Assembly: GCA_015066705.1 (NCBI GenBank)
Contig: SVNV01000007.1
Coordinates: forward strand, 7,573-71,572
Length of the DNA stretch: 64,000 nucleotides
Direction: 5' to 3'
From: Ruminococcus sp.
Lineage (GTDB): Bacteria; Bacillota; Clostridia; Oscillospirales; Ruminococcaceae
Both the position numbers and the translations under genes were made by a program. Positions 5,511 through 59,896 of this stretch are shown one piece after another (the first letter of the stretch is position 1; each line of letters opens with the position of its first letter). The notes below the pieces were generated by a model, which searched no databases, had not been told where the DNA came from, and saw nothing but the letters and a program-made list of their open reading frames with translations.

Positions 5511-6593
5511 TTATTCAGCCTTAACCTTTCCTGCTGAGATGTCAACAGTAACTATGTATCCTTCGCAGTTGTTTCCGCTGATTGTGTAGTGATATTCGCT
5601 TCCGTCTGCGTAAATCGGAATCTGTACGTTTGTGGTATCCTTGCTCTTGTCAGCAGGATAATAGTAAATTGCATATCTGTCGCCTGTACCTTCAGCGTTA
5701 ACATAAAGCGGAGTGTCAAGTGAATACTGAGCGATTGAAAGCATGTATTCTTCAAGACAGAGCTTACTGTTGTAGATAAGCTCAGCATGCGGAACACCAA
5801 CGTATCTGAAATGCCAGGTTTCCCCATCGATTCCTGTGATAGTAGCCTTGTCAGGGTCGTATCTCAGAATGAAACCGTACTTTGCACAGTTTTCAAGAAT
5901 CCACTTGTACTCTCCATCGCCTGAGAAGAAAGGGAAACCGTCCTTGGCAAGCTGGAAGTCAACAGCATATCCGCTGTGGTGTTCGCTGTGTCCCGGTTTT
6001 TCAACAAGAGTTGAATAAGCAAGTCCTGTTTTTTCAAGGTCCTTTTCGTAAAGTTCTTTCTGGTATTCTTCGGTTCTGTGACCGCTTACCAGCATAACGT
6101 CCTTGATTCCTTTTGCCTTGTAGAAATCGGCGAGCATAGCGTTTAAGTTTTCAAGAACAATCTTTTTGGCAGTAACTGAATCATCCTTTATTGGCATAAC
6201 AACTACATTGTTTTCGTTCTTTCTGTAATCAAAGCTTGAAACAAGGTCCTGTGGCTCGTCACCCTTGTATGCGTAATCACCGTTTATAAGGATAAGGTCG
6301 CCGTTGTGAAGGGCGGTTGTGTTATCAACATTAACATATTTGTAATCATTGTAAAGCTTTTCTGCGCTGGGCTGAATACTAGGTGTGTTATTGTTGTTTT
6401 GTGTATCAGACGGCTTCTTGTTGTCGGTTTGACTGCTTGGATTTTTTTCCTTTGGATTATCCTTTTTCTTGTCGTCATTTTTTGAGCAACCCTGACAAAT
6501 CAGCACTATAATAAGAATCATTGCACCAAGTGCAACAGCGATATTTTTATATTTAAGTCGTCTCCACAAAGGCTTTTTTGCCATTTTTCTCAC
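5511..6593 (-). CDS. VanY-type D-alanyl-D-alanine carboxypeptidase (peptidase M15B), membrane anchored
   Basis: N-terminal TM/signal anchor. Motifs SGHRTEEYQ, HSEHHSGYAVD and WHFRYVG are characteristic of the VanY/M15B Zn site. Confidence 0.8.
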   Translation of the reverse strand: MRKMAKKPLWRRLKYKNIAVALGAMILIIVLICQGCSKNDDKKKDNPKEKNPSSQTDNKKPSDTQNNNNTPSIQPSAEKLYNDYKYVNVDNTTALHNGDLILINGDYAYKGDEPQDLVSSFDYRKNENNVVVMPIKDDSVTAKKIVLENLNAMLADFYKAKGIKDVMLVSGHRTEEYQKELYEKDLEKTGLAYSTLVEKPGHSEHHSGYAVDFQLAKDGFPFFSGDGEYKWILENCAKYGFILRYDPDKATITGIDGETWHFRYVGVPHAELIYNSKLCLEEYMLSIAQYSLDTPLYVNAEGTGDRYAIYYYPADKSKDTTNVQIPIYADGSEYHYTISGNNCEGYIVTVDISAGKVKAE

Positions 6594-6762
6594 TGTCCTC
6601 TCTGTAAATTACCTGTTCTGTACATTATTCACTGTGTTTTCCACAGCAGATTTTCACATAGTAATTATACCACATCGCCACGCACATTTAAAGGGGATTT
6701 TCAAAGTTAACATTTAATTTACAAATTTCGACAAAAAGAGCGCCGATTTCTCAGCGCCTTGA

Positions 6763-7878
6763 TTACTTTTTGAAAGAGAATAAACCTTTTAATTTGTTCA
6801 TCGTTCTCTTGAAGTTTATAATCGGCTTTGTGAATAGTCTTAATATCAGACAAAACGGATACAAAACCGGAATCTTCTTTATAATCGGATAAGAAAAAGC
6901 AAGCGTCCTGTAGCTTGGGAAAAGCTTTGTAAGCAGGTATTTTGCTTTTCCTTTTTCTCTGATTTCGTTGTGTGTACTTGACTTAACTGTGCCAAAAGCT
7001 CCGCCCTTGTAGACGTATTCAGCCATTTCATCAAAGCTGTTATCCCATTCCTTGTCGCCAAACCACATCTGAGAAAGCAAAAGAATATCAAAGCAAAGCT
7101 TTTTGTACTGATTGTCCTTGAGAATATTACCGATTTTATCCAAATCAATTTTTTCATTGTGGTTTTTGTAGTAAAGCCAGATGTCCATAAAAGCTCTCAG
7201 ACCCACACCACCGTTTATGTAGTGCTTTGCAGCGTGTGTAAGAAGATGCAAAAAGAAGTATGTGCTGTCAAGCTCACATCTGAAGCCCTCTGTCTGCTTT
7301 GAAAAATCAAACGGGTTTTTAAGGTACTTTGCAAAATGCTTTCCGCCAAAAGTGTAATCCGAAAATAAAAATCTGTGTATTTCTACATTCATAATAGGCT
7401 TTTTGGTGTACTCATCGTGGTTTCCGGCATCAAAATGCTCGGCCTCGTAGCCATTCTGAATCATCAAGTCCCTGAGCTTGTGGTGACTGTTTTCTTCGGT
7501 GATGACGTCGATGTCGCACATGTAACGCATATCAGGAGAAGGGTAGAGCTTTTTCAGAATAATTCCCTTGAGAGGAATGTATTTGATTTTGTTTGAATTG
7601 AAGGTTTGCTCTAAAACACCGTATTCGTGAAACTGCTGTAAATCTCTTGCAATAGCCTTGTCACGGTCCTGACGCCAGATTTTCAGAATGTTATCTGACG
7701 GCTTGCTTCCAAGCTGTTCAATTCCGTAAAAAACCATTCCCGAAACGTGATGGAATTTCGATTTTTTGTATATCCCCTCAAAGGTCAGCCCCTCGGGTAA
7801 TTCCTCGGGCTTTTCACCTCTGAGCACCCTTTTCAGAAGGGAAGTTATATATTGGAATTCCGATAAATTGACATTCAT
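6763..7878 (-). CDS. Nucleotidyltransferase-family protein (NTP_transf_5 type, as found in RRE/kinase-associated peptide clusters)
   Basis: 371-aa ORF. Pol-beta-like motif IPLKGIILKKLYPSPDMRYMCDIDVI, then EIHRFLF and GGVGLRAFMDIW. Last gene of the pqqD-peptidase operon. Confidence 0.7.
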   Translation of the reverse strand: MNVNLSEFQYITSLLKRVLRGEKPEELPEGLTFEGIYKKSKFHHVSGMVFYGIEQLGSKPSDNILKIWRQDRDKAIARDLQQFHEYGVLEQTFNSNKIKYIPLKGIILKKLYPSPDMRYMCDIDVITEENSHHKLRDLMIQNGYEAEHFDAGNHDEYTKKPIMNVEIHRFLFSDYTFGGKHFAKYLKNPFDFSKQTEGFRCELDSTYFFLHLLTHAAKHYINGGVGLRAFMDIWLYYKNHNEKIDLDKIGNILKDNQYKKLCFDILLLSQMWFGDKEWDNSFDEMAEYVYKGGAFGTVKSSTHNEIREKGKAKYLLTKLFPSYRTLAFSYPIIKKIPVLYPFCLILRLFTKPIINFKRTMNKLKGLFSFKK

Positions 7879-7896
7879 AAAATGCTGTACTCCCGG

Positions 7897-8343
7897 TTAT
7901 TTTTTTAATATTCTTCTCAGCTTGAAAAATACTTTTCTGATGAAAAAGGATTTCCAAAAAAGCAAATAAATTCTGTAACCGAAATTTTTCCCGGAAATCT
8001 CCTTGTCGCCTCTGAAAACTCTTTCCACAACGCCGATAATCTGTTCAGACCTGATACCTTCCTCAAGCATAACCTGATTGTCACCGCAAAGGGTGTATAA
8101 GTCACCTTTTACCTTTACAATCCTGTGTAAAACATAATGCCCGTCATCTCTAAGATAAAAAACAATGTCGTTTTTCTTCAAATCTTTTGCAGGCTTGACA
8201 AGTCCGACCGAATCCTTACCCTCTCTCAATAGTGGAAGCATACTTGTTCCTCTCGGATAAAGCCTGAATTCTCCGCCATTTTCAAGAACAAACCTTATGG
8301 TTTCGTCGTATTCGCTGAGCTTGAATCTTTCTTTTTCAGGCAA
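7897..8343 (-). CDS. S24/S26-family Ser/Lys peptidase (signal-peptidase-I/LexA-like) with C-terminal hydrophobic tail
   Basis: GTSMLPLL (catalytic Ser box) and VLHRIVKVKGD (Lys box, like the SPase I KR..G.PGD motif). TTG start; its first codons overlap the PqqD stop (TTGCCTGA). Confidence 0.7.
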   Translation of the reverse strand: MPEKERFKLSEYDETIRFVLENGGEFRLYPRGTSMLPLLREGKDSVGLVKPAKDLKKNDIVFYLRDDGHYVLHRIVKVKGDLYTLCGDNQVMLEEGIRSEQIIGVVERVFRGDKEISGKNFGYRIYLLFWKSFFIRKVFFKLRRILKK

Positions 8344-8599
8344 GTAAATCTGCCCCTTTCAGCTTGTCAATAAATTCCAGAACGTCAGCTTTTGCAGTAG
8401 CCTCGTCAACATCATAGGTTCCGGATAATTTTGTAGCAAGCTCATCAGCTTCAGCACCTTCGCTTAAAGCCTCCCACAGGAATTTTCCTACAGAATTAAG
8501 TCTGATAATTCCGTTGAAATCACGGCTAGCGCTTCCAACCGCAACAACGATTGTCTGCTCGCCGACCTGTCTGAGCATAAAGCCTTCTTTAATTTTCAT
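8336..8599 (-). CDS. PqqD-family protein (RiPP recognition element / peptide chaperone)
   Basis: ORF 8336..8626. The ATG at 8599 is preferred because an AAGGTG RBS lies 7 nt upstream. About 87 aa, with the typical pattern MLRQVGEQTIVV...LNSVGKFLWEAL.....ELATKL...YDVD...A..DVLEFIDKL (winged-helix PqqD/RRE layout). Confidence 0.8.
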   Translation of the reverse strand: MKIKEGFMLRQVGEQTIVVAVGSASRDFNGIIRLNSVGKFLWEALSEGAEADELATKLSGTYDVDEATAKADVLEFIDKLKGADLLA

Positions 8600-8635
8600 A
8601 AAACCACACCTTTCGCAATAAATCAACTATATAAC

Positions 8636-8664
8636 ATTATAAAACTTTATTAAGCAAATGTCAA
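8636..8664 (-). promoter_or_regulatory. Consensus sigma-A promoter for the pqqD-peptidase-nucleotidyltransferase operon
   Basis: The minus strand reads TTGACA-17 nt-TATAAT (-35 at 8659-8664, -10 at 8636-8641). Confidence 0.7.
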
Positions 8665-8729
8665 CTAGCGGAGTTTACAAAAAATTTACAATTATAGTTT
8701 GAAATGATGAATATTTTTGGTAAAAATAG

Positions 8730-8758
8730 TTGACATTCTGTCGTAATTGTTGTATAAT
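8730..8758 (+). promoter_or_regulatory. Consensus sigma-A promoter for the secreted-protein/precursor array
   Basis: TTGACA (8730-8735), 17 nt, TATAAT (8753-8758); 35 nt upstream of the RBS of ORF 8794. Confidence 0.7.
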
Positions 8759-8793
8759 CATAGTGTAAATTTATATTTTAGGAGGATAATAAA

Positions 8794-9813
8794 ATGAAAC
8801 TCAAGAAGATTCTTTCTTCAGTTGTTGCACTCGCAATGGCTGTAACAACACTCACAGCATTTACAACTTCAGCAAATGCTAAGACAACATCAGCTAATAT
8901 TTTAGATGAAGCATTCACAATTGCAAGCTGGGATGTACCAGTGGTAGTTGCAAAGGCTGACATCACAGCAGAAGACATTGCTACTACAGGTGCTGACGCT
9001 GTAATCATCGCAGGCGATAAGGTTACAGGCGATTATTATGAATTTATGGTTCAGGCTAATGGTGTTCGTCTTTATCAGGAAAAGATTAACGGACCTTTTG
9101 AAGTAGAAGTTCCACTTTTTGGTAACTATGACCTTGAATTCACAGGTAACGCTGTAGAAATCACTTCAATCAAGTTTGTTGATTCAGATGCTAACGTATC
9201 ATTGACACGTGGTTCACAGGAAGCTGTAATCAGTGCTCCTGGTGCAAACGATACTGTACTTGCTACAGGTGTTGACCTCGGTTGGAGCGGTGCAGAAGGT
9301 ATTACTGTTTCAGGCACTCAGCTTTCAGGTTTGAGATTTGACGGTACAGAATCATTTGTATTCACATCAACAGGTACTGGTAACATTCAGATTCAGGATG
9401 GTAACTGGTCAGGCGTAATTATTGATGGCGGTATTTGGACAGCAGGTGACAAGCTTATTATTCCGATCACACAAACATATGTAGATGGTATTAATGCAAT
9501 CGGTACAGCTCCTGGCGTTGAGCTCCAGATTGTTGACTACGGTACAAAGGCTATCAGATACATCCTTAAGGTTGCTGAAGATGATGTAGATGAAATCGAA
9601 TCAGTATCACTTAAGTTCAGAAACGATTTTGATTATTCTGAAGCATTTGAAACATCAAAGTGCTACAGATCAATTAAGGCTAATGGACAGACAATTTCTG
9701 AAGATGGTTATGTATTTATCACATTTGTAGTAAATAATGTTCCTGGTAACTTCTCATTTGACGAAGCTATCTTCTCATTTGATGGTGAAAGAGCAGCAAC
9801 ACTTGTTGGTTAA
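8794..9813 (+). CDS. Secreted protein of unknown function (Sec signal peptide)
   Basis: Strong AGGAGG RBS. Signal peptide MKLKKILSSVVALAMAVTTLTAFTTSANA|K. Beta-rich, Gly/Thr/Val-rich mature part with no recognisable catalytic motif. Codon choice resembles the highly expressed tuf/fusA genes. Confidence 0.75.
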   Translation: MKLKKILSSVVALAMAVTTLTAFTTSANAKTTSANILDEAFTIASWDVPVVVAKADITAEDIATTGADAVIIAGDKVTGDYYEFMVQANGVRLYQEKINGPFEVEVPLFGNYDLEFTGNAVEITSIKFVDSDANVSLTRGSQEAVISAPGANDTVLATGVDLGWSGAEGITVSGTQLSGLRFDGTESFVFTSTGTGNIQIQDGNWSGVIIDGGIWTAGDKLIIPITQTYVDGINAIGTAPGVELQIVDYGTKAIRYILKVAEDDVDEIESVSLKFRNDFDYSEAFETSKCYRSIKANGQTISEDGYVFITFVVNNVPGNFSFDEAIFSFDGERAATLVG

Positions 9814-9862
9814 TGCGAAGTAAAATAAACATTTAATTTATTATGTAAAGGAGATTTTTATT

Positions 9863-9991
9863 ATGAAGTTTGAATACATCAAGCCAGAACTCGAAATCGA
9901 GTTGTTCGAAGTTGAAGACGTTATTACTCTTTCAATCGTAAACGATGACGAAGAACAGATTCTTTTCGGAGATATCACTTGGGAAAACTAA
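9863..9991 (+). CDS. Unannotated small ORF A1 (42 aa), candidate RiPP precursor with lasso-like leader
   Basis: AAAGGAG RBS 8 nt upstream. Sequence MKFEYIKPELEIELFEVEDVITLSIVNDDEEQILFGDITWEN. The first 24 codons are paralogous to ORF A2, with 9 synonymous and 5 conservative differences. A hairpin terminator follows. Confidence 0.65.
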   Translation: MKFEYIKPELEIELFEVEDVITLSIVNDDEEQILFGDITWEN

Positions 9992-10002
9992 ATAAATGAA
10001 TC

Positions 10003-10032
10003 AAAGGCAGGCATTTTGCCTGCCTTTAATTT
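10003..10032 (+). terminator. Hairpin terminator/attenuator directly after small ORF A1
   Basis: ggcaggc-atttt-gcctgcc followed by TTTAATTT. The next gene starts 18 nt later, so the terminator is probably leaky. Confidence 0.65.
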
Positions 10033-10049
10033 ATAATAAGGTATAGTAA

Positions 10050-10502
10050 ATGAAAAAAGTAATTTGTTTTACACTCATTCTAAGCGTTTGTATGAGTGTT
10101 ATGTGTGGGTGCGATACTTCTAAAGATGAATATAAAAGTATCACCTCAAAAACCACTACAACAGTAAACAGTAGCTCAACGGATATAAATAACGAGCCTA
10201 TTGCTACTACAACTGCAAGTGTAGAAAATTCAGTAAATACATCATCAACATTGACAACAACTGTTAAAACGGAAGCTACGATAGATGATGTTATTACTAC
10301 AACTACAGCTAAAAAGATAGAGAATAAGAATACTACCACAACGACTACTAAATTGACAACCACAAATAAGCCTACAACAACTACCAAAACTACCACTTCG
10401 ACAATTACTACTACTAAAAAACAGGATAGTGGATTGGTTATTGAAGATGAAGAGGATGAAAAAGATGTTGTAATTGATTTTGGTTCAATTATCTGGAAAT
10501 AA
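10050..10502 (+). CDS. Thr-rich lipoprotein L1 (unknown function)
   Basis: Lipobox-like signal peptide (LILSVCMSVMCGC). Long T/N/K low-complexity region. C-terminal acidic motif TTTKKQDSGLVIEDEEDEKDVVIDFGSIIWK shared with L2. Confidence 0.75.
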   Translation: MKKVICFTLILSVCMSVMCGCDTSKDEYKSITSKTTTTVNSSSTDINNEPIATTTASVENSVNTSSTLTTTVKTEATIDDVITTTTAKKIENKNTTTTTTKLTTTNKPTTTTKTTTSTITTTKKQDSGLVIEDEEDEKDVVIDFGSIIWK

Positions 10503-10558
10503 TTTGTTGTGTGACACTGTTTTATATTAAAGAAAAACAACAGACGGAGGTAATCATT

Positions 10559-10696
10559 ATGAAGCTTGAATATTTTAAACCTGAGCTTGAAATCGACGTT
10601 TTTGAAATAGAAGACGTGATTACTCTCAGCAATGGCGATGCTTATGATGATGGTGATTTAAACGATAATAATAATTACGAAAATATTTTTGGTTAA
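10559..10696 (+). CDS. Unannotated small ORF A2 (45 aa), paralogue of A1, candidate RiPP precursor
   Basis: GGAGG RBS 8 nt upstream of the ATG at 10559 (internal Met of track ORF 10511..10696). Sequence MKLEYFKPELEIDVFEIEDVITLSNGDAYDDGDLNDNNNYENIFG. A hairpin terminator follows. Confidence 0.65.
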   Translation: MKLEYFKPELEIDVFEIEDVITLSNGDAYDDGDLNDNNNYENIFG

Positions 10697-10713
10697 CACA
10701 AATTTATATATTC

Positions 10714-10740
10714 AGGGCAGGTTTTTACCTGCCTTTTTTG
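10714..10740 (+). terminator. Rho-independent terminator after small ORF A2
   Basis: ggcaggt-tttt-acctgcc followed by TTTTTT. The stem sequence is related to the terminator after A1. Confidence 0.75.
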
Positions 10741-10769
10741 TTGACATAAATTGATAATAATGATATAAT
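10741..10769 (+). promoter_or_regulatory. Consensus sigma-A promoter for the L2-kinase operon
   Basis: TTGACA (10741-10746), 17 nt, TGaTATAAT (extended -10; hexamer 10764-10769). Confidence 0.7.
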
Positions 10770-10798
10770 TTAAATAACATAAATAAGGAGAGTTATAA

Positions 10799-11311
10799 AT
10801 GAAAAAAATACTTATGATTTTGTGCGTTGCTGCTATGTTTTGTATGACAGCTTGCGAAGGCGAAAAGCATACTAAGATTACATCAAAGTCAACAACTCCT
10901 GCTGAAACTACCACTAAAAAACAGGGCGGACTTGTAATTGAAGATGAATATAACGCTGACGAAGATGATGAAAATGCTATTGATTTCAATGATATTTTTA
11001 AAGATGTAAGTTATACCGATACTCCTGCAGCTACACAGCCTGTTGTCACAACAAAACCTGATGCTGACGAAAGCGATAAGCCGGATTCATCCAAAACTAC
11101 AACAACTGTAAAAAAAGATGATAAGGTAACTACAACAACTTCAAAAAAGGAAACAAATAAAACCACGACTACTACCACAAAACCATCAACAATCACCACA
11201 ACAACTACAAAGAAGCCGGTTGAATCCACAAATACAGGAAGCGGCCTTGACGTTGAAGATACAGCGCCGAACGACAACCTTGATTGGGGCCCGCTTGTTC
11301 CGATAAACTGA
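10799..11311 (+). CDS. Thr-rich lipoprotein L2 (paralogue of L1)
   Basis: Lipobox (AAMFCMTAC). The motif TTTKKQGGLVIEDEYNADEDDENAIDFNDIFK sits near the N-terminus, followed by a long T/K/P-rich region. The stop is 1 nt before the kinase ATG. Confidence 0.75.
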   Translation: MKKILMILCVAAMFCMTACEGEKHTKITSKSTTPAETTTKKQGGLVIEDEYNADEDDENAIDFNDIFKDVSYTDTPAATQPVVTTKPDADESDKPDSSKTTTTVKKDDKVTTTTSKKETNKTTTTTTKPSTITTTTTKKPVESTNTGSGLDVEDTAPNDNLDWGPLVPIN

Positions 11312-11312
11312 T

Positions 11313-12017
11313 ATGATTAGAAAATACAAAATTTGCGACTTGATAGTTGAATGTGATTTCCGCTTTGAAACTATGCTTTCACGAAGCGAGAAATTTGCAT
11401 TTGATACCGAAAAAGAGGCTGATATTACTATCGGCTATGATAAAAAACACCACGAATTTCTTTTGAAAAACGCAGAAAATTTCACAGAAAAGGATTGCGA
11501 AGTAATGTCAACGGGGAAGAAGTTTTATAATGAACTTCTGAACTTTGACGGCTTTATGCTTCATTCTTCGGCAGTTATGGTTGACGGAAAGGTTTTTCTT
11601 TTTTCTGCACCAAGCGGAACGGGGAAGTCTACCCATACAAGACAATGGCGTAAGCTTTTCGGCGAAAGAGCAGTAATCATTAACGATGATAAACCTGCAA
11701 TAAGAATTGTTGACGGTAAAATCTATGCCTATGGAACCCCTTGGAGCGGAAGCTCTGAGCTCAATAGTACCGATTTCGGAATTCTTCAGGGGATATGTGT
11801 TCTTTCCCGTAGTGAGGAAAATTATATCCGACCTCTAGACCAGAGTAAAGCGATTTTCTCCGTTTTAAATCAGACTATAAGACCTGCCGACGAAAAGAAG
11901 ATGGATAAACTTCTTGCAGTGCTTGATAAGGTAGTAAGCGGAGTGAAAATCTGGCAGATGGGCTGTAATATTTCCACTGACGCAGCACAACTTGCATATG
12001 ACGCTATGAGTAAATAA
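11313..12017 (+). CDS. HPr-kinase-like P-loop kinase (lasso-peptide kinase-like)
   Basis: LHSSAVMVDGKVFLFSAPSGTGKSTHTRQW...AVIINDD matches the HprK C-terminal domain layout (H-G/S..V...G..vL..G.SG.GKS...DD). Translationally coupled to L2. Confidence 0.75.
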   Translation: MIRKYKICDLIVECDFRFETMLSRSEKFAFDTEKEADITIGYDKKHHEFLLKNAENFTEKDCEVMSTGKKFYNELLNFDGFMLHSSAVMVDGKVFLFSAPSGTGKSTHTRQWRKLFGERAVIINDDKPAIRIVDGKIYAYGTPWSGSSELNSTDFGILQGICVLSRSEENYIRPLDQSKAIFSVLNQTIRPADEKKMDKLLAVLDKVVSGVKIWQMGCNISTDAAQLAYDAMSK

Positions 12018-12034
12018 AAAAAAGTACCTAACAT

Positions 12035-12339
12035 TAAGGCGGATAGTTATATAGAAGTATATTATATGAATTTATCGGGGCGAAACCTTTCTGAAGAAAG
12101 GTTGTCCCCCGAACCCCCTTCCAAAGACTTTAATATTAAAATAACTATCCCCCGCTGTGCGGGGGATAGTTATTTTAAATACTGAAGTTTTAGGAAAGGA
12201 GTTTGAGGATGACTCCCCACAAGGTGGGGAGATGTCTGCGTAGCAGACAGAGGGGACAGGCGACCGTTGGGAGAACCCTTTTTCAAAAGGGTTTTCCTCA
12301 ATAAGTCCGTATAATACTTCTTTATGACCACTCACCTTA
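12035..12339 (-). mobile_element. MITE-like structured repeat, copy 1 (305 bp including flanking TA), inserted in the loop of a bidirectional terminator
   Basis: About 95% identical over shared parts to the reverse complement of 48468-48710. Imperfect 24-30 bp terminal inverted repeats (AGGTGAGTGGTCATAAAGAAGTAT / AGGCGGATAGTTATATAGAAGTAT). TA on both sides. Flanks aaagtacctaaca / tgttaggtacttt are perfect complements, i.e. a split terminator stem. Confidence 0.7.
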
Positions 12340-14884: not shown

Positions 14885-15091
14885 TTATTCCTCGTTGAAA
14901 ATAAACAGTTCTTCAACAGTGGTATCAAAAACCTTTGCAATATCCATAGCAAGCTTGAGGGAAGGGTTGTACTGACCTTTTTCAAGACGAATAATAGTTT
15001 CACGTCTTACTCCTACCATATCGGCAAGGTCACCCTGTTTCATATCAAATTTTGCTCTGTATTCTTTAATTTTAGTAATGAATTCAGGCAT
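14885..15091 (-). CDS. XRE-family helix-turn-helix transcriptional regulator
   Basis: 68 aa. The Cro/CI HTH region ([38 protein letters not shown]) is followed by a short acidic C-terminal tail; last gene of a three-gene operon. Confidence 0.85.
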
Positions 15092-15555
15092 TATTCTTCC
15101 TCCGTATTATCTGTATGGCTTTCGTAGTGTAGGGCGATTCCATTATAAACGGCATAGAGCATATATATTAATGCACCGATAAAACCCTGATGAATTGGTA
15201 TCGTTATTTTATCAGTGATTCCTGTCAATATAGATGCGAAGATGAAAATTATAAAACCGGTAAAGAATAAAAACCACAGAAATGAAGAATTTGTCTTTGC
15301 AACATTTTCTTTATATAGTTCATCTTCCTTATCACGCATACCAGAGGCTATCATGTATATTTCCAAAGTAACAAAAACTGATACAAAGAGAAAACCATAT
15401 ACTATAATATTTGTAAAAAGATTGTTGTTATCGTTCATAATGATAAGGTCGATTATTCCCCATACTGCCCAAATAATACAACTTACTATGCTGTAAACGA
15501 TACTAATTTTATAGTATTGTCTGTACGAAAGTATTTTATCTTTTAGATTTAACAT
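15091..15555 (-). CDS. Small integral membrane protein (4 predicted TM), unknown function
   Basis: Hydrophobic ORF whose start and stop abut the neighbouring genes (ATG/TAA overlaps). This is the typical partner arrangement of small XRE regulators in Firmicutes. Confidence 0.6.
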
Positions 15556-16220
15556 TATTCTTCCTCACATTCCTTAACTTTACGTTTTTTAGTCTTTGGT
15601 TTTTCGGCAATTTCCTCGTTTGCATCAACGATTTTTTCTGCTTTTTCATCAGAAACCGTTTCCTGTTTGTTGTTCATTTCCTGCTGTAGTTCGAGCTTGA
15701 TTTGTTCTTTAAGTTCGGCCTTGATTATTTCAATATCAATTTTTACATCATTGTTTTCAGAATCTGTATTTTCGTCATCTGCTTCTTCGATTTCTTCTTC
15801 ATAATCCGAAACTTCTTCGTCTTCTGATTTAAGAGTTGGAATAATATCAAGACAAAGGAAAATAATGCTTCTTACGCCTATGCTTCCTAAAAGAATATAG
15901 TAAAACAAATTAATAGCAACCTGACTTACATCAATAAGCCGATCAAGATTTTCTACAATAACAGCAGATACAAACAATGCACCAAGCATAATAAAAAATG
16001 TAAATTCTGTTGCTTTTTGAAGATTTAGGTTAGTGAGCTCGTCTTTTTCCTCATATGTACCTACAAGAGTTCCTATCACAAAGGCAAAGCCTGCATACAT
16101 AAGGATTTTCCATATCCCCTCAAGTGAAAAGGATTGAGCAATAATAATGCATATAACAGCAGCGATTGCAATGTAATGCTTGTTGCGGTAGCTTACAGTA
16201 TTATTTTTATTCTTGTTCAT
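15555..16220 (-). CDS. Membrane protein with acidic/Lys-rich C-terminal tail, unknown function
   Basis: Four hydrophobic segments followed by a highly charged tail (EDEEVSDYEEEIEEADDEN...KKRKVKECEEE). First gene of the operon. Confidence 0.6.
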   Translation of the reverse strand: MNKNKNNTVSYRNKHYIAIAAVICIIIAQSFSLEGIWKILMYAGFAFVIGTLVGTYEEKDELTNLNLQKATEFTFFIMLGALFVSAVIVENLDRLIDVSQVAINLFYYILLGSIGVRSIIFLCLDIIPTLKSEDEEVSDYEEEIEEADDENTDSENNDVKIDIEIIKAELKEQIKLELQQEMNNKQETVSDEKAEKIVDANEEIAEKPKTKKRKVKECEEE

Positions 16221-58417: not shown

Positions 58418-59896
58418 ATGACTTTGATTTTTAACGGACAAGATTTCAAGTATGAAATAGAATCAGTAGTAAAGCTGTTTTTGCCTGTTGTGCATTTTGA
58501 TTTTCTGTATGAAAATTCTGCTGATAGTGTTATTGGTGATTATTGCCTCTGTGAAAGAGAAATTTCTGATAATACCGCTAAGCTTCATTCTGAATGTAGA
58601 CTTAACGGCGAAACAGCAAGCTTTTATAATGAAATTTCTGTTGATACTTTGAATTTTGACGGCGAGTGTGAAATTTCACTTTGCTCAATGCTCTTCAAGT
58701 GCCTTGAAAAGCTGACGGGTAAAAAAGTCGGCTGGGGAACACTTACAGGAGTACGTCCTGTGAAACGTGTAAATAAAATGATTTCTCAGGGTATGACTAA
58801 AAACCAAATCAAAGACGAGCTTAAAAACCGCTTTCTGCTTTCCGATGAGAAGTGTGAAATCGCATATAAAACTGCAAAAACCCAGCAGAATATCGTAAAT
58901 AGAATTGATGATAAGGCATTTGCACTTTATGTTTCAATTCCTTTTTGTCCATCAAGATGTTCGTATTGTTCTTTTGTTTCGCAGGAAGTAGAAAAATCTC
59001 TTGACCTTATACCAAAGTATGTTTATTGCCTTTGCCGTGAAATCGAAAAAACAGGCGAAATTGCCACTTCTCTCGGACTTAAACTGCAGTCTGTGTATTT
59101 CGGTGGCGGAACTCCTACCTCGCTTGAAGCTCCATATTTAAAGACTATTATGGAAGCAGTAAAGAATTCCTTTGATATGTCAGGCGTGCTCGAATATACA
59201 GTTGAGGCAGGCCGTGCTGATACAATTACAGAGGACAAGCTTCTCACAATTAAGGAAATGGGTGCTGACAGAGTTTCAATTAACCCACAGACGCTTAATA
59301 ACGACGTTTTAAAAGAAATCGGCAGAAAGCACACTGTTGAGGACTTTTTTGATAAGTATAACCTTGCAAGAAAAATCGGATTTAAAACTATAAATACCGA
59401 CCTTATAGCAGGACTTCCTACCGATACGACAGATAGCTTTAAAAATACAATAGACGGGATAGTTTCACTAAGCCCTGAAAATGTAACGGTGCATACGCTT
59501 TCTGTTAAGAGGACTTCAAATATAAACGTAAACGGTGAATATCAGGTGCTTGATAACCCTGCCTGCGAAATGGTAGACTACGCTACAAAAATACTTTCTG
59601 AAAGTGGTTATAATCCATATTATCTTTATAAGCAGAAGAATATGCTTGATAATCTTGAAAATATCGGCTGGTCCATACCAGGGCACGAAAGCCTGTATAA
59701 TGTTTATATTATGGAGGAAATCCAGACGATTTTAGCTGTGGGGGCAGGGGCTTCAACAAAGCTTGTTGATAATAAAAATTCACGCCTTGAAAGAATTTTT
59801 AATTATAAGCTCCCACTTGAATATATCAAGAATTTTGACTTGATGCTCGAAAAGAAAGACGATATAGAAAGGTTTTATAATTTTGAAAAAGAATGA
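58418..59896 (+). CDS. HemN/HemZ-like oxygen-independent coproporphyrinogen-III-oxidase-family radical SAM protein
   Basis: Radical SAM cluster motif CPSRCSYCSF, GGGTP, and an N-terminal extension typical of HemZ-like proteins. Confidence 0.8.
   Translation: MTLIFNGQDFKYEIESVVKLFLPVVHFDFLYENSADSVIGDYCLCEREISDNTAKLHSECRLNGETASFYNEISVDTLNFDGECEISLCSMLFKCLEKLTGKKVGWGTLTGVRPVKRVNKMISQGMTKNQIKDELKNRFLLSDEKCEIAYKTAKTQQNIVNRIDDKAFALYVSIPFCPSRCSYCSFVSQEVEKSLDLIPKYVYCLCREIEKTGEIATSLGLKLQSVYFGGGTPTSLEAPYLKTIMEAVKNSFDMSGVLEYTVEAGRADTITEDKLLTIKEMGADRVSINPQTLNNDVLKEIGRKHTVEDFFDKYNLARKIGFKTINTDLIAGLPTDTTDSFKNTIDGIVSLSPENVTVHTLSVKRTSNINVNGEYQVLDNPACEMVDYATKILSESGYNPYYLYKQKNMLDNLENIGWSIPGHESLYNVYIMEEIQTILAVGAGASTKLVDNKNSRLERIFNYKLPLEYIKNFDLMLEKKDDIERFYNFEKE

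Follow-up and report, generated by a model that had tools for sequence, protein, structure and literature searches.

The closest described relatives of the locus reported here are the lasso peptide clusters of Firmicutes, such as those for paeninodin (pade) and pseudomycoidin (psm). The pseudomycoidin cluster has the order C-A-K-B1-B2-N-D, and its kinase PsmK phosphorylates the C-terminal Ser of the peptide (PMC6993621). PsmN, an "uncharacterised NTP transferase" whose function is known by genetics only, is needed to add a hexose to that phosphate (PMC6993621). In Firmicutes lasso clusters, the nucleotidyltransferase (NTase) gene stands between B2 and D, and in some cases the two form a fusion of B2 with the NTase (PMC8498205). 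Here, we analyzed 64 kb of DNA from Ruminococcus sp. (contig SVNV01000007.1; hereafter, the window, to which all coordinates refer unless a related locus is named). It contains a locus that encodes a PqqD-type RRE (recognition element of peptides that are made by ribosomes and modified after translation, RiPPs), a peptidase, an NTase, a kinase-fold protein and two candidate precursor peptides, A1 and A2.

An earlier note on this DNA had offered two explanations: either the core lasso enzymes act in trans, or the locus is a distinct RRE-dependent pathway. Our analysis favors the latter. We put at about 0.7 the probability that the locus is a self-contained RRE-dependent system for the maturation and export of leader-dependent peptides, which is related to lasso clusters but makes no lasso. 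Conserved linkage of the genes, the lack of a recurrent cyclase or B2 gene and the lack of a conserved acceptor residue in the precursors favor this reading.

A conserved gene arrangement without recurrent lasso enzymes

The gene coordinates used for the whole locus come from an open reading frame (ORF) scan of the window, which recovered all nine ORFs of the earlier note with the same boundaries. The minus strand carries the genes for the PqqD-family RRE (8336-8599, 87 aa), a clan-SF (S24/S26) Ser/His peptidase (7897-8343, 148 aa) and an NTase of the NTP_transf_5 family (PF14907; 6763-7878, 371 aa). They diverge from a plus-strand array that encodes a secreted protein with a Sec signal peptide (8794-9813, 339 aa), the putative precursor A1 (9863-9991, 42 aa), the Thr-rich lipoprotein L1 (10050-10502, 150 aa), the putative precursor A2 (10559-10696, 45 aa), the Thr-rich lipoprotein L2 (10799-11311, 170 aa) and a predicted ScmC-family P-loop protein (PF27840; 11313-12017, 234 aa).

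Relatives of this locus are widespread. Searched against 1.84 billion 50%-identity representatives, the peptidase profile had 213 matches at E≤1e-30 and 3,529 at E≤1e-10; nearly all of the 213 clusters stem from gut metagenomes of humans, rodents and ruminants. The peptidase family comprises 1,067 clusters at 90% identity, whose named matches are metagenome-assembled genomes of Oscillospiraceae and Ruminococcus. We fetched 80 genome loci, together with contigs for selected homologues, and called and clustered their ORFs. The hosts are Oscillospiraceae, Ruminococcus, Ruminiclostridium and Lachnospiraceae of human, rodent, rabbit, deer and ruminant guts. In the canonical order, one arm runs from a large secreted protein through one to five small ORFs and an optional lipoprotein to the ScmC-like gene, and it diverges from a second arm with the order PqqD, peptidase, ATP-binding cassette (ABC) half-transporter and NTP_transf_5.

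The linkage was counted in 41 non-redundant loci for which 6 kb or more of upstream and 4 kb or more of downstream sequence was available (well-flanked loci). PqqD was found in 39 of them, the ScmC-like gene in 35, the NTase in 29, the ABC exporter in 24 and an A-like precursor in 25; all five stood together in 20. The same arrangement in dozens of independent genomes is more than chance, and the co-occurrence of the enzymes with A1/A2-like ORFs is conserved. The absence of an exporter, which had also been remarked on, is true of the window, where a phmmer search with an ABC exporter query found no ABC ATPase anywhere. It does not extend to the system, of which an ABC exporter is normally a part; the window is one of three exporter-less loci.

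No lasso cyclase and no transglutaminase-like B2 protease had been noticed in the 64 kb, and our scan agrees with this. Neither Asn_synthase (PF00733) nor transglutaminase-like B2 (PF13471) had a match among the 28 window ORFs scanned, which covered every ORF of at least 530 aa except an amylase (named by the contig annotation) and EF-G (recognized by its GTPase motif). Likewise, no Asn-synthetase-like or transglutaminase-like gene recurs within ±10 kb of the 80 related loci. The large families that are repeated there are the ABC exporter, secreted proteins and housekeeping neighbors (NAD synthase, PFOR and RpoB), and a scan of 70 distinct neighbor proteins of 450-760 aa found no Pfam family in more than two.

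A predicted precursor family with a lasso-type leader

An iterated hidden Markov model (HMM) search among the small ORFs of related loci identified 60 candidate precursor ORFs in 44 loci, corresponding to 46 unique sequences. Their leader consensus is M-K-K-x-Y-x-x-P-E-x-E-I-x-x-F-x-T-E-D-I-I-T-x-S. Within it, Y5 and F15 are invariant, P8 occurs in at least 90% of the sequences and a hydrophobic residue stands at Tyr+5, whereas Thr at F+7 and Ser at F+9 are found in 33 and 34 of the 46 precursors, respectively. Y-x-x-P-x-Φ is the spacing recognized by lasso B1 proteins; as judged from the alignment, the precursors carry a lasso-type leader (YxxPxΦ…F…T-x-S). In the window, A1 consists of the leader MKFEYIKPELEIELFEVEDVITLS and the acidic core IVNDDEEQILFGDITWEN, and A2 of the leader MKLEYFKPELEIDVFEIEDVITLS and the core NGDAYDDGDLNDNNNYENIFG. 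The earlier note had singled out both as precursor-like substrates, and their membership in a conserved leader family that is linked to the enzymes in many loci supports that choice. The family is almost invisible in databases because such small ORFs are rarely called: its profile found 27 matches, none of them named, among 5.8 billion proteins, and it has no NCBIfam model.

The cores are variable and acidic, with a median net charge of -4, a median length of 27 residues and an aromatic residue within the last six positions in 36 of the 46 precursors. Neither a conserved hydroxyl residue nor another evident site for a modification was found in them. Cleavage at T-x-S would fit the -3/-1 rule of signal peptidases in most sequences, but not in precursors of the type found in locus L007. 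In a further subgroup (GM-type precursors, e.g. those of loci L043, L046, L048, L052, L059 and L079), the motif S-x1-6-G-M-[NKT] lies 5-12 residues after T-x-S, and the C terminus has the conserved pattern [IF]-D-[LI]-x4-W-[NK]. Because a second conserved motif follows T-x-S, the boundary between leader and core may lie further downstream in this subgroup.

Could A1 and A2 nevertheless be true lasso precursors, with the cyclase and B2 encoded elsewhere and acting in trans? Such a split cluster would explain the YxxPxΦ leader with its Thr close to the junction and an RRE that is closest to lasso B1 proteins. Additionally, the window cores, if read from Ser24, have Asp or Glu at positions 7-8, and pseudomycoidin can be made without B1 and B2 (PMC6993621). 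Across the family, however, Asp or Glu occupies core positions 7-9 in 27-28 of 46 precursors compared with 22.4±3.1 expected from composition, leaving about 18 without an acceptor. The cores reach 42 aa and have conserved C-terminal motifs, which is atypical for lasso peptides. Moreover, a dedicated RRE-coupled peptidase holds the B2 position in every locus, and cyclase and B2 genes are lacking both from the scanned window ORFs and, as recurrent neighbors, from the related loci. We therefore regard a split lasso cluster as highly improbable. Because the acceptor Asp/Glu is near its composition level and a single precursor ends in Ser, the A-like peptides, taken as a family, appear to be neither lasso substrates nor substrates for a PadeK-type reaction.

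The RRE and its coupled peptidase

The assignment of the PqqD-family RRE made in the earlier note is well supported: the protein scored 62.4 bits against the Pfam PqqD model (PF05402; cut-off 23.4). Its best NCBIfam matches are two lasso PqqD chaperone models, both below cut-off. Among solved structures, it matched TbiB1, a B1 protein of a lasso system, best (5v1u, E=1.5e-4); the next match is a further lasso PqqD chaperone. The RRE gene overlaps the start of the peptidase gene by 8 nt, and the same overlap recurs in 51 loci; the two proteins are translationally coupled through it.

The peptidase scored just under the cut-off of the Peptidase_S24 model (22.9 versus 23.3 bits), and its NCBIfam matches are weak (26.1 bits versus a cut-off of 51.85 for TIGR02228, an archaeal-type signal peptidase I; 20 versus 190 for SipW). 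The S24-type assignment stands despite the sub-cut-off score because the fold matches and invariant motifs support it. An alignment of 31 members contains the invariant elements G-x-S34-M-x-P, H73-R74 and C86-G-D-N-Q90, which read GTSMLP, LHRI and CGDNQ in the window protein. A profile search of solved structures found no match, and a fold search was used instead: the AlphaFold2 (AF2) model, with a mean predicted confidence (pLDDT) of 85.6, matches LexA, UmuD, SpsB and SipA. Since the S34/H73 pair is invariant, the enzyme belongs to the Ser/His class; it is a clan-SF, SipW/Sec11-like peptidase. The S24/S26 clan given in the earlier note was thus correct, but the Ser/Lys dyad was not. Its position, its coupling to the RRE and its fold led us to propose that it is an RRE-dependent leader peptidase. 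In one of the 50%-identity representatives, the 542-aa protein P0293, the peptidase (residues 2-142) and NTP_transf_5 (residues 185-425) are naturally fused, which would place the NTase at the leader-processing step.

One alternative is a signal peptidase like SipW, which, in the manner of tapA-sipW-tasA, would serve the Sec signals of the neighboring secreted protein and lipoproteins. It, too, would show a Ser/His pattern and weak matches to SipW and archaeal-type signal peptidase I, and the gene for a secreted protein is always a neighbor. The small ORFs would then be incidental; yet they are strongly conserved, with ribosome-binding sites (RBSs) and terminators. Neither the sequences nor the AF2 model show an N-terminal transmembrane (TM) anchor; only a pair of amphipathic helices is present at the C terminus. 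The peptidase gene overlaps the gene for a cytoplasmic RRE, and in a clade of loci that consist of the ScmC-like, PqqD and peptidase genes alone, no secreted protein is encoded next to them. Lipoproteins, moreover, are processed by signal peptidase II. Taken together, these points leave very little room for a Sec-type signal peptidase, and the role of an RRE-dependent leader peptidase accounts better for the enzyme.

The nucleotidyltransferase and the kinase-fold protein

The NTase matched NTP_transf_5, as the earlier note had named it, with 157.6 bits versus a cut-off of 31.2, across profile positions 8-249 of 249, and it contains the metal-binding Asp pair in the motif DIDV. No curated NCBIfam model matched it. 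By its family, it appears to be of the type found in Firmicutes lasso clusters (PsmN).

The P-loop protein had no match in the local Pfam copy, including none to Hpr_kinase_C at E≤0.1, and its precomputed annotation is PF27840 (ScmC). Among NCBIfam models, ScmC (TIGR04249) matched with E=5e-6 (25.9 bits versus a cut-off of 125) and HprK_rel_A (TIGR04352) with E=0.01 (15 bits versus 200). Walker A (SGTGKST), NDDKP and GTPWSG are invariant in the ScmC-like family. The AF2 model (pLDDT 93.9) matches ATP-PEPCK (E about 2e-6, TMq 0.5-0.57) and HprK/P (E about 1e-5), whereas profile searches of solved structures found no relative of either this protein or the NTase. The annotation and the model thus place the P-loop protein in the ScmC family within the PEPCK/HprK fold: the HprK-like kinase of the earlier note is retained as a predicted fold, but its membership in Hpr_kinase_C is not. 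In NCBI records, the ScmC-like proteins are named "hypothetical protein" and the peptidases "S24/S26 family peptidase".

Membership of the locus in the curated HPr-rel-A, SCM, lasso_PqqD or SipW systems was considered and rejected; their models all scored far below threshold, and no NCBIfam model exceeded its cut-off for any part.

Variants of the locus

In a neighbor-joining tree of the peptidases, about 20 loci form a separate clade that contains only the ScmC-PqqD-peptidase trio (L063, L069, L073, L083, L086, L088, L090, L091 and others; e.g. L091 8233-10471). These loci have a conserved two-TM protein of about 219 aa upstream, for example at L091 8233-8892, and often adjoin his or pyrC genes. 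Within 10 kb of them, no precursor (searched for by HMM and regular expression), NTase or ABC gene was found. In some trio-only loci (L071 10544-11429, L053, L062 and L078), the peptidase gene is followed by genes for a LytTR DNA-binding protein of about 155 aa and a protein of about 138 aa, a pair that resembles the LytTR regulator/inhibitor pairs controlling bacteriocin genes. Still others retain just the peptidase and NTase genes. In three loci, a glycosyltransferase of family GT8 is inserted between the ScmC and PqqD genes (L047 8819-9745, L064 and L066); the precursor follows the peptidase there and has a Ser/Thr/Pro-rich core, as do the L070 precursors, which suggests O-glycosylated products. 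Because these trio-only, peptidase-NTase-only and GT8 variants exist, the RRE-peptidase pair appears to be a portable processing module with exchangeable tailoring enzymes.

The independent variation of NTase and ScmC can also be read in another way. The RRE and peptidase might simply clip the leader from bacteriocin- or pheromone-like peptides that are exported unmodified, while the kinase-fold protein and NTase act elsewhere, for instance on envelope polymers, on the secreted protein or lipoproteins, or in regulation. The lack of a conserved hydroxyl or obvious modification site in the cores and the LytTR regulators that follow the trio in some loci agree with this. Nevertheless, ScmC, the NTase and precursors occur together in 23 of the 25 precursor-bearing well-flanked loci, and ScmC-type proteins are paired with PqqD proteins in other peptide-modification cassettes (NCBIfam ScmC and ScmD). 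The peptidase-NTase fusion puts the NTase at leader processing, and the GT8 insertion goes with Ser/Thr/Pro-rich cores, as would be the case if the peptide were the target of tailoring enzymes. We consider the export of unmodified peptides unlikely, although clearly less so than a split lasso cluster or a signal peptidase, and we prefer a pathway in which the two enzymes tailor the cores.

The secreted domain and the lipoproteins

In 37 loci, the secreted protein encoded beside the precursors was found to have a domain of about 100 aa, which corresponds to residues 231-329 (nt 9484-9780) of the window protein. Its pattern is RFV..I.E.DA…YKS..A.G.T..A.EG..FI…NVP. These precursor-adjacent proteins range from 264 to about 1,050 aa, and their other domains vary (e.g. 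Big_2); the domain itself is always present. Most of the proteins have it at the C terminus, those of the L024/L025/L029/L033/L042 group at the N terminus. Among 28 members, no Pfam family had a match in more than one, and a search of the Protein Data Bank gave no relative. From its distribution, the domain appears to be a conserved, unannotated marker of the system.

Ser/Thr-rich lipoproteins occur in about ten loci. Their tails either finish with the pattern [AP]-P-[ND]-x-[DE]-x-x-W-G-x-L or are similar to the cores of the same locus. Of the window lipoproteins, L1 has a C-terminal stretch of 21 residues (VIEDEEDEKDVVIDFGSIIWK) that aligns with the core of A1 (IVNDDEEQILFGDITWE), and L2 has the C-terminal family motif APNDNLDWGPLVPIN and an internal IDFNDIF resembling the A2 tail. 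In L007, the lipoprotein sequence DLDNPNNEIDNPNHD mirrors the core DLDDPNNPIDHP. Core-lipoprotein similarity has a mean of 30.4 within the same locus compared with 25.4 across loci (permutation p≈0.017), and because the same-locus value is higher, the core-like tails and the cores suggest a shared extracellular binding partner. The earlier account had left the secreted protein and lipoproteins as bystanders. Their recurrence, in 37 and about ten loci, respectively, argues against this, and both are, by comparison of the loci, conserved parts of the system.

Transcription signals and neighboring genes

Two sigma-70-type promoters, each with a 12/12 consensus match, stand back to back in the divergent intergenic region, one for the minus-strand operon (8664-8636) and one for the plus-strand array (8730-8758). 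A third, at 10741-10769 (+), has a 12/12 match and an extended -10 TG and precedes L2 and the ScmC-like gene. A consensus scan gave 12 terminator-like sites compared with 4.0±2.4 expected. One hairpin closes the PqqD-peptidase-NTase operon (6739-6758, minus strand) and another the plus-strand array (12148-12165, plus strand). Terminators bound both arms; therefore, the unit extends from 6739 to 12165, about 5.4 kb. Terminator or attenuator hairpins also follow A1 (10003-10027, +) and A2 (10714-10735, +), with similar stems (GGCAGG…CCTGCC). The good RBS and the hairpin of both A1 and A2 form a layout that is typical of highly expressed precursor genes.

An ORF of 169 aa antisense to L1 (10031-10540, minus strand), with runs of Val and Ser, is an artifact of Thr-codon (ACN) repeats and not a gene. 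Directly downstream of the NTase terminator lies a gene (5511-6593, minus strand) whose product is a VanY/VanXY-like D,D-carboxypeptidase bearing a TM segment at its N terminus. It is kept only in the closest relatives (L004, L005 and L012), so it is probably outside the system. Elsewhere in the window, a gene for a small XRE-type helix-turn-helix regulator is followed by two ORFs of 154 and 221 aa without a Pfam family (14885-16220, minus strand), and an ECF-type sigma factor (173 aa) is encoded upstream of a 665-aa beta-propeller-domain protein (PF09826; 33826-36360, minus strand), possibly forming a sigma/anti-sigma-like envelope module.

Discussion

Overall, we propose a putative mechanism for the maturation and export of the A-like peptides. 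A1 and A2 would be translated with a conserved leader of about 24 residues, which the PqqD-type RRE would bind as lasso B1 does. While the RRE holds the peptide, the ScmC-type kinase-fold protein and the NTase may modify its acidic core; this is the weakest step of the scheme. The Ser/His peptidase, probably cytoplasmic and membrane-associated, whose ratio to the RRE would be fixed through the 8-nt overlap, would then cut the leader near T-x-S and so replace B2. The product would be exported by an MsbA/McjD-type ABC half-transporter, which most relatives encode between peptidase and NTase; the window variant, without an exporter, would have to use another route. Outside the cell, the peptides may act with the secreted protein that carries the domain of about 100 aa and with the lipoproteins, whose acidic, core-like tails contain Trp/Phe and are presented on long Ser/Thr linkers. 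We speculate that these serve as a receptor or anchor and as a tethered mimic, possibly for immunity.

The only precedent for the modification step, for which the earlier note had suggested a phosphate (+80 Da), nucleotidyl or sugar-phosphate groups, is PsmK/PsmN, which add first a phosphate and then a hexose on that phosphate. The site would have to differ from that of PsmK because the cores have no C-terminal Ser. That the enzymes carry out this specific chemistry of a phosphate followed by an adduct is a tentative suggestion by analogy, and we find it rather doubtful.

Several observations weigh against the proposed pathway. The C-terminal Ser targeted by PsmK and PadeK is present in only 1 of 46 precursors, and the cleavage site is not fixed, many relatives having a second conserved G-M motif downstream. 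The scores of the kinase-fold protein are far under the cut-offs of ScmC and HprK_rel_A; the substrates of known enzymes are therefore no guide to its own. The window has no exporter, and its copy of the system could be partly disabled. Because the trio-only clade has no precursor within 10 kb, the module may act on unrecognized substrates. Finally, the roles given above to the secreted protein and lipoproteins are guesses.

The full-text searches found papers on lasso peptides only, and neither the literature searched nor NCBIfam release 20 contains a description of this architecture or leader. The system is built from known kinds of parts, within the broad world of RRE-dependent RiPPs. Going further, we suggest, at somewhat less than even odds, that it represents a new class of RiPP, in which the leader protease would be the first clan-SF serine enzyme that depends on an RRE. 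In such a class, a ScmC-type kinase and NTP_transf_5 would tailor acidic linear cores away from a C-terminal Ser, the mature peptides would be ligands of the secreted domain of about 100 aa, and the locus-matched lipoprotein tails would be tethered mimics for immunity or anchoring. If true, this class would be widespread in gut and rumen Oscillospiraceae and Lachnospiraceae. The peptides may be abundant, unrecognized mediators of interactions between gut Clostridia. The secreted domain and core-mimicking lipoproteins suggest a peptide-receptor or immunity arrangement, while the trio-only clade hints at a broader function in peptide or protein processing. PF14907 and ScmC/HprK-fold proteins, largely uncharacterized, adjoin PqqD in thousands of genomes, and the locus offers a compact, precursor-linked context for them. 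With candidate substrates of 42 and 45 aa and a unit this small, it is experimentally tractable. A lasso leader/RRE module that is re-used with another protease and without a cyclase bears on RiPP evolution, as well as on genome-mining rules, which currently require the cyclase.

Among known systems, the SynChlorMet (SCM) cassette also pairs a ScmC-family P-loop protein with a PqqD-family protein (ScmD), in a presumed peptide-modification context. The present locus, in contrast, has no radical SAM/SPASM genes (ScmE/ScmF), the nearest radical SAM gene being 46 kb away (58418-59896); its ScmC score is well under the family cut-off, and the partners in this system are a peptidase, an NTase and an ABC exporter. 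The HPr-rel-A system, whose function is unknown, likewise has an HprK-fold kinase adjoining a PqqD protein. The pairing named in the earlier note is alike, but the match to the kinase model is marginal, and the PqqD protein had no match to that system's model among the matches listed.

Signal peptidases I of the ER/SipW type (S26B; B. subtilis SipW in tapA-sipW-tasA, Sec11 and archaeal signal peptidase I) share with the window peptidase the clan-SF fold, the GxSMxP Ser motif, a His-Arg in place of the Lys box and the GDN box. The 39 residues from Ser to His in the window peptidase are presumably also the spacing of Sec11 and SipW. SipW and the window peptidase, moreover, both appear dedicated to substrates encoded next door. 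Unlike these enzymes, the window peptidase has no N-terminal membrane anchor, is probably cytoplasmic, is RRE-coupled and falls far short of the family cut-offs; it presumably acts on RiPP-type leaders instead of Sec signal peptides.

The Firmicutes lasso clusters are the closest. Both they and the present system have a Y-x-x-P-x-Φ leader with Thr near the cleavage site, and the window RRE, predicted to bind this leader, is closest to lasso B1. The kinase likewise has an HprK/PEPCK fold, and in both the NTase, PF14907 here, adjoins the leader peptidase and is sometimes fused with it. The order RRE-peptidase-(ABC)-NTase is also shared, the ABC half-transporter being present in relatives of the window locus. 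The paeninodin-type accessory set that the earlier note had recognized is thus similar in its RRE, NTase and kinase fold but not in its kinase family, which is ScmC instead of an Hpr_kinase_C protein acting on a C-terminal Ser. The system further differs in having no cyclase, in a clan-SF Ser/His peptidase that takes the place of the B2 cysteine protease, in cores without a conserved acceptor Asp/Glu or a C-terminal Ser, and in the addition of a secreted-domain protein and core-mimicking lipoproteins. As far as sequence comparison can tell, the evolutionary tie to the Firmicutes lasso clusters is real. In the simplest history, a cluster of the lasso type would have lost its cyclase and exchanged B2 for a clan-SF peptidase; alternatively, both systems would go back to an older common toolkit.

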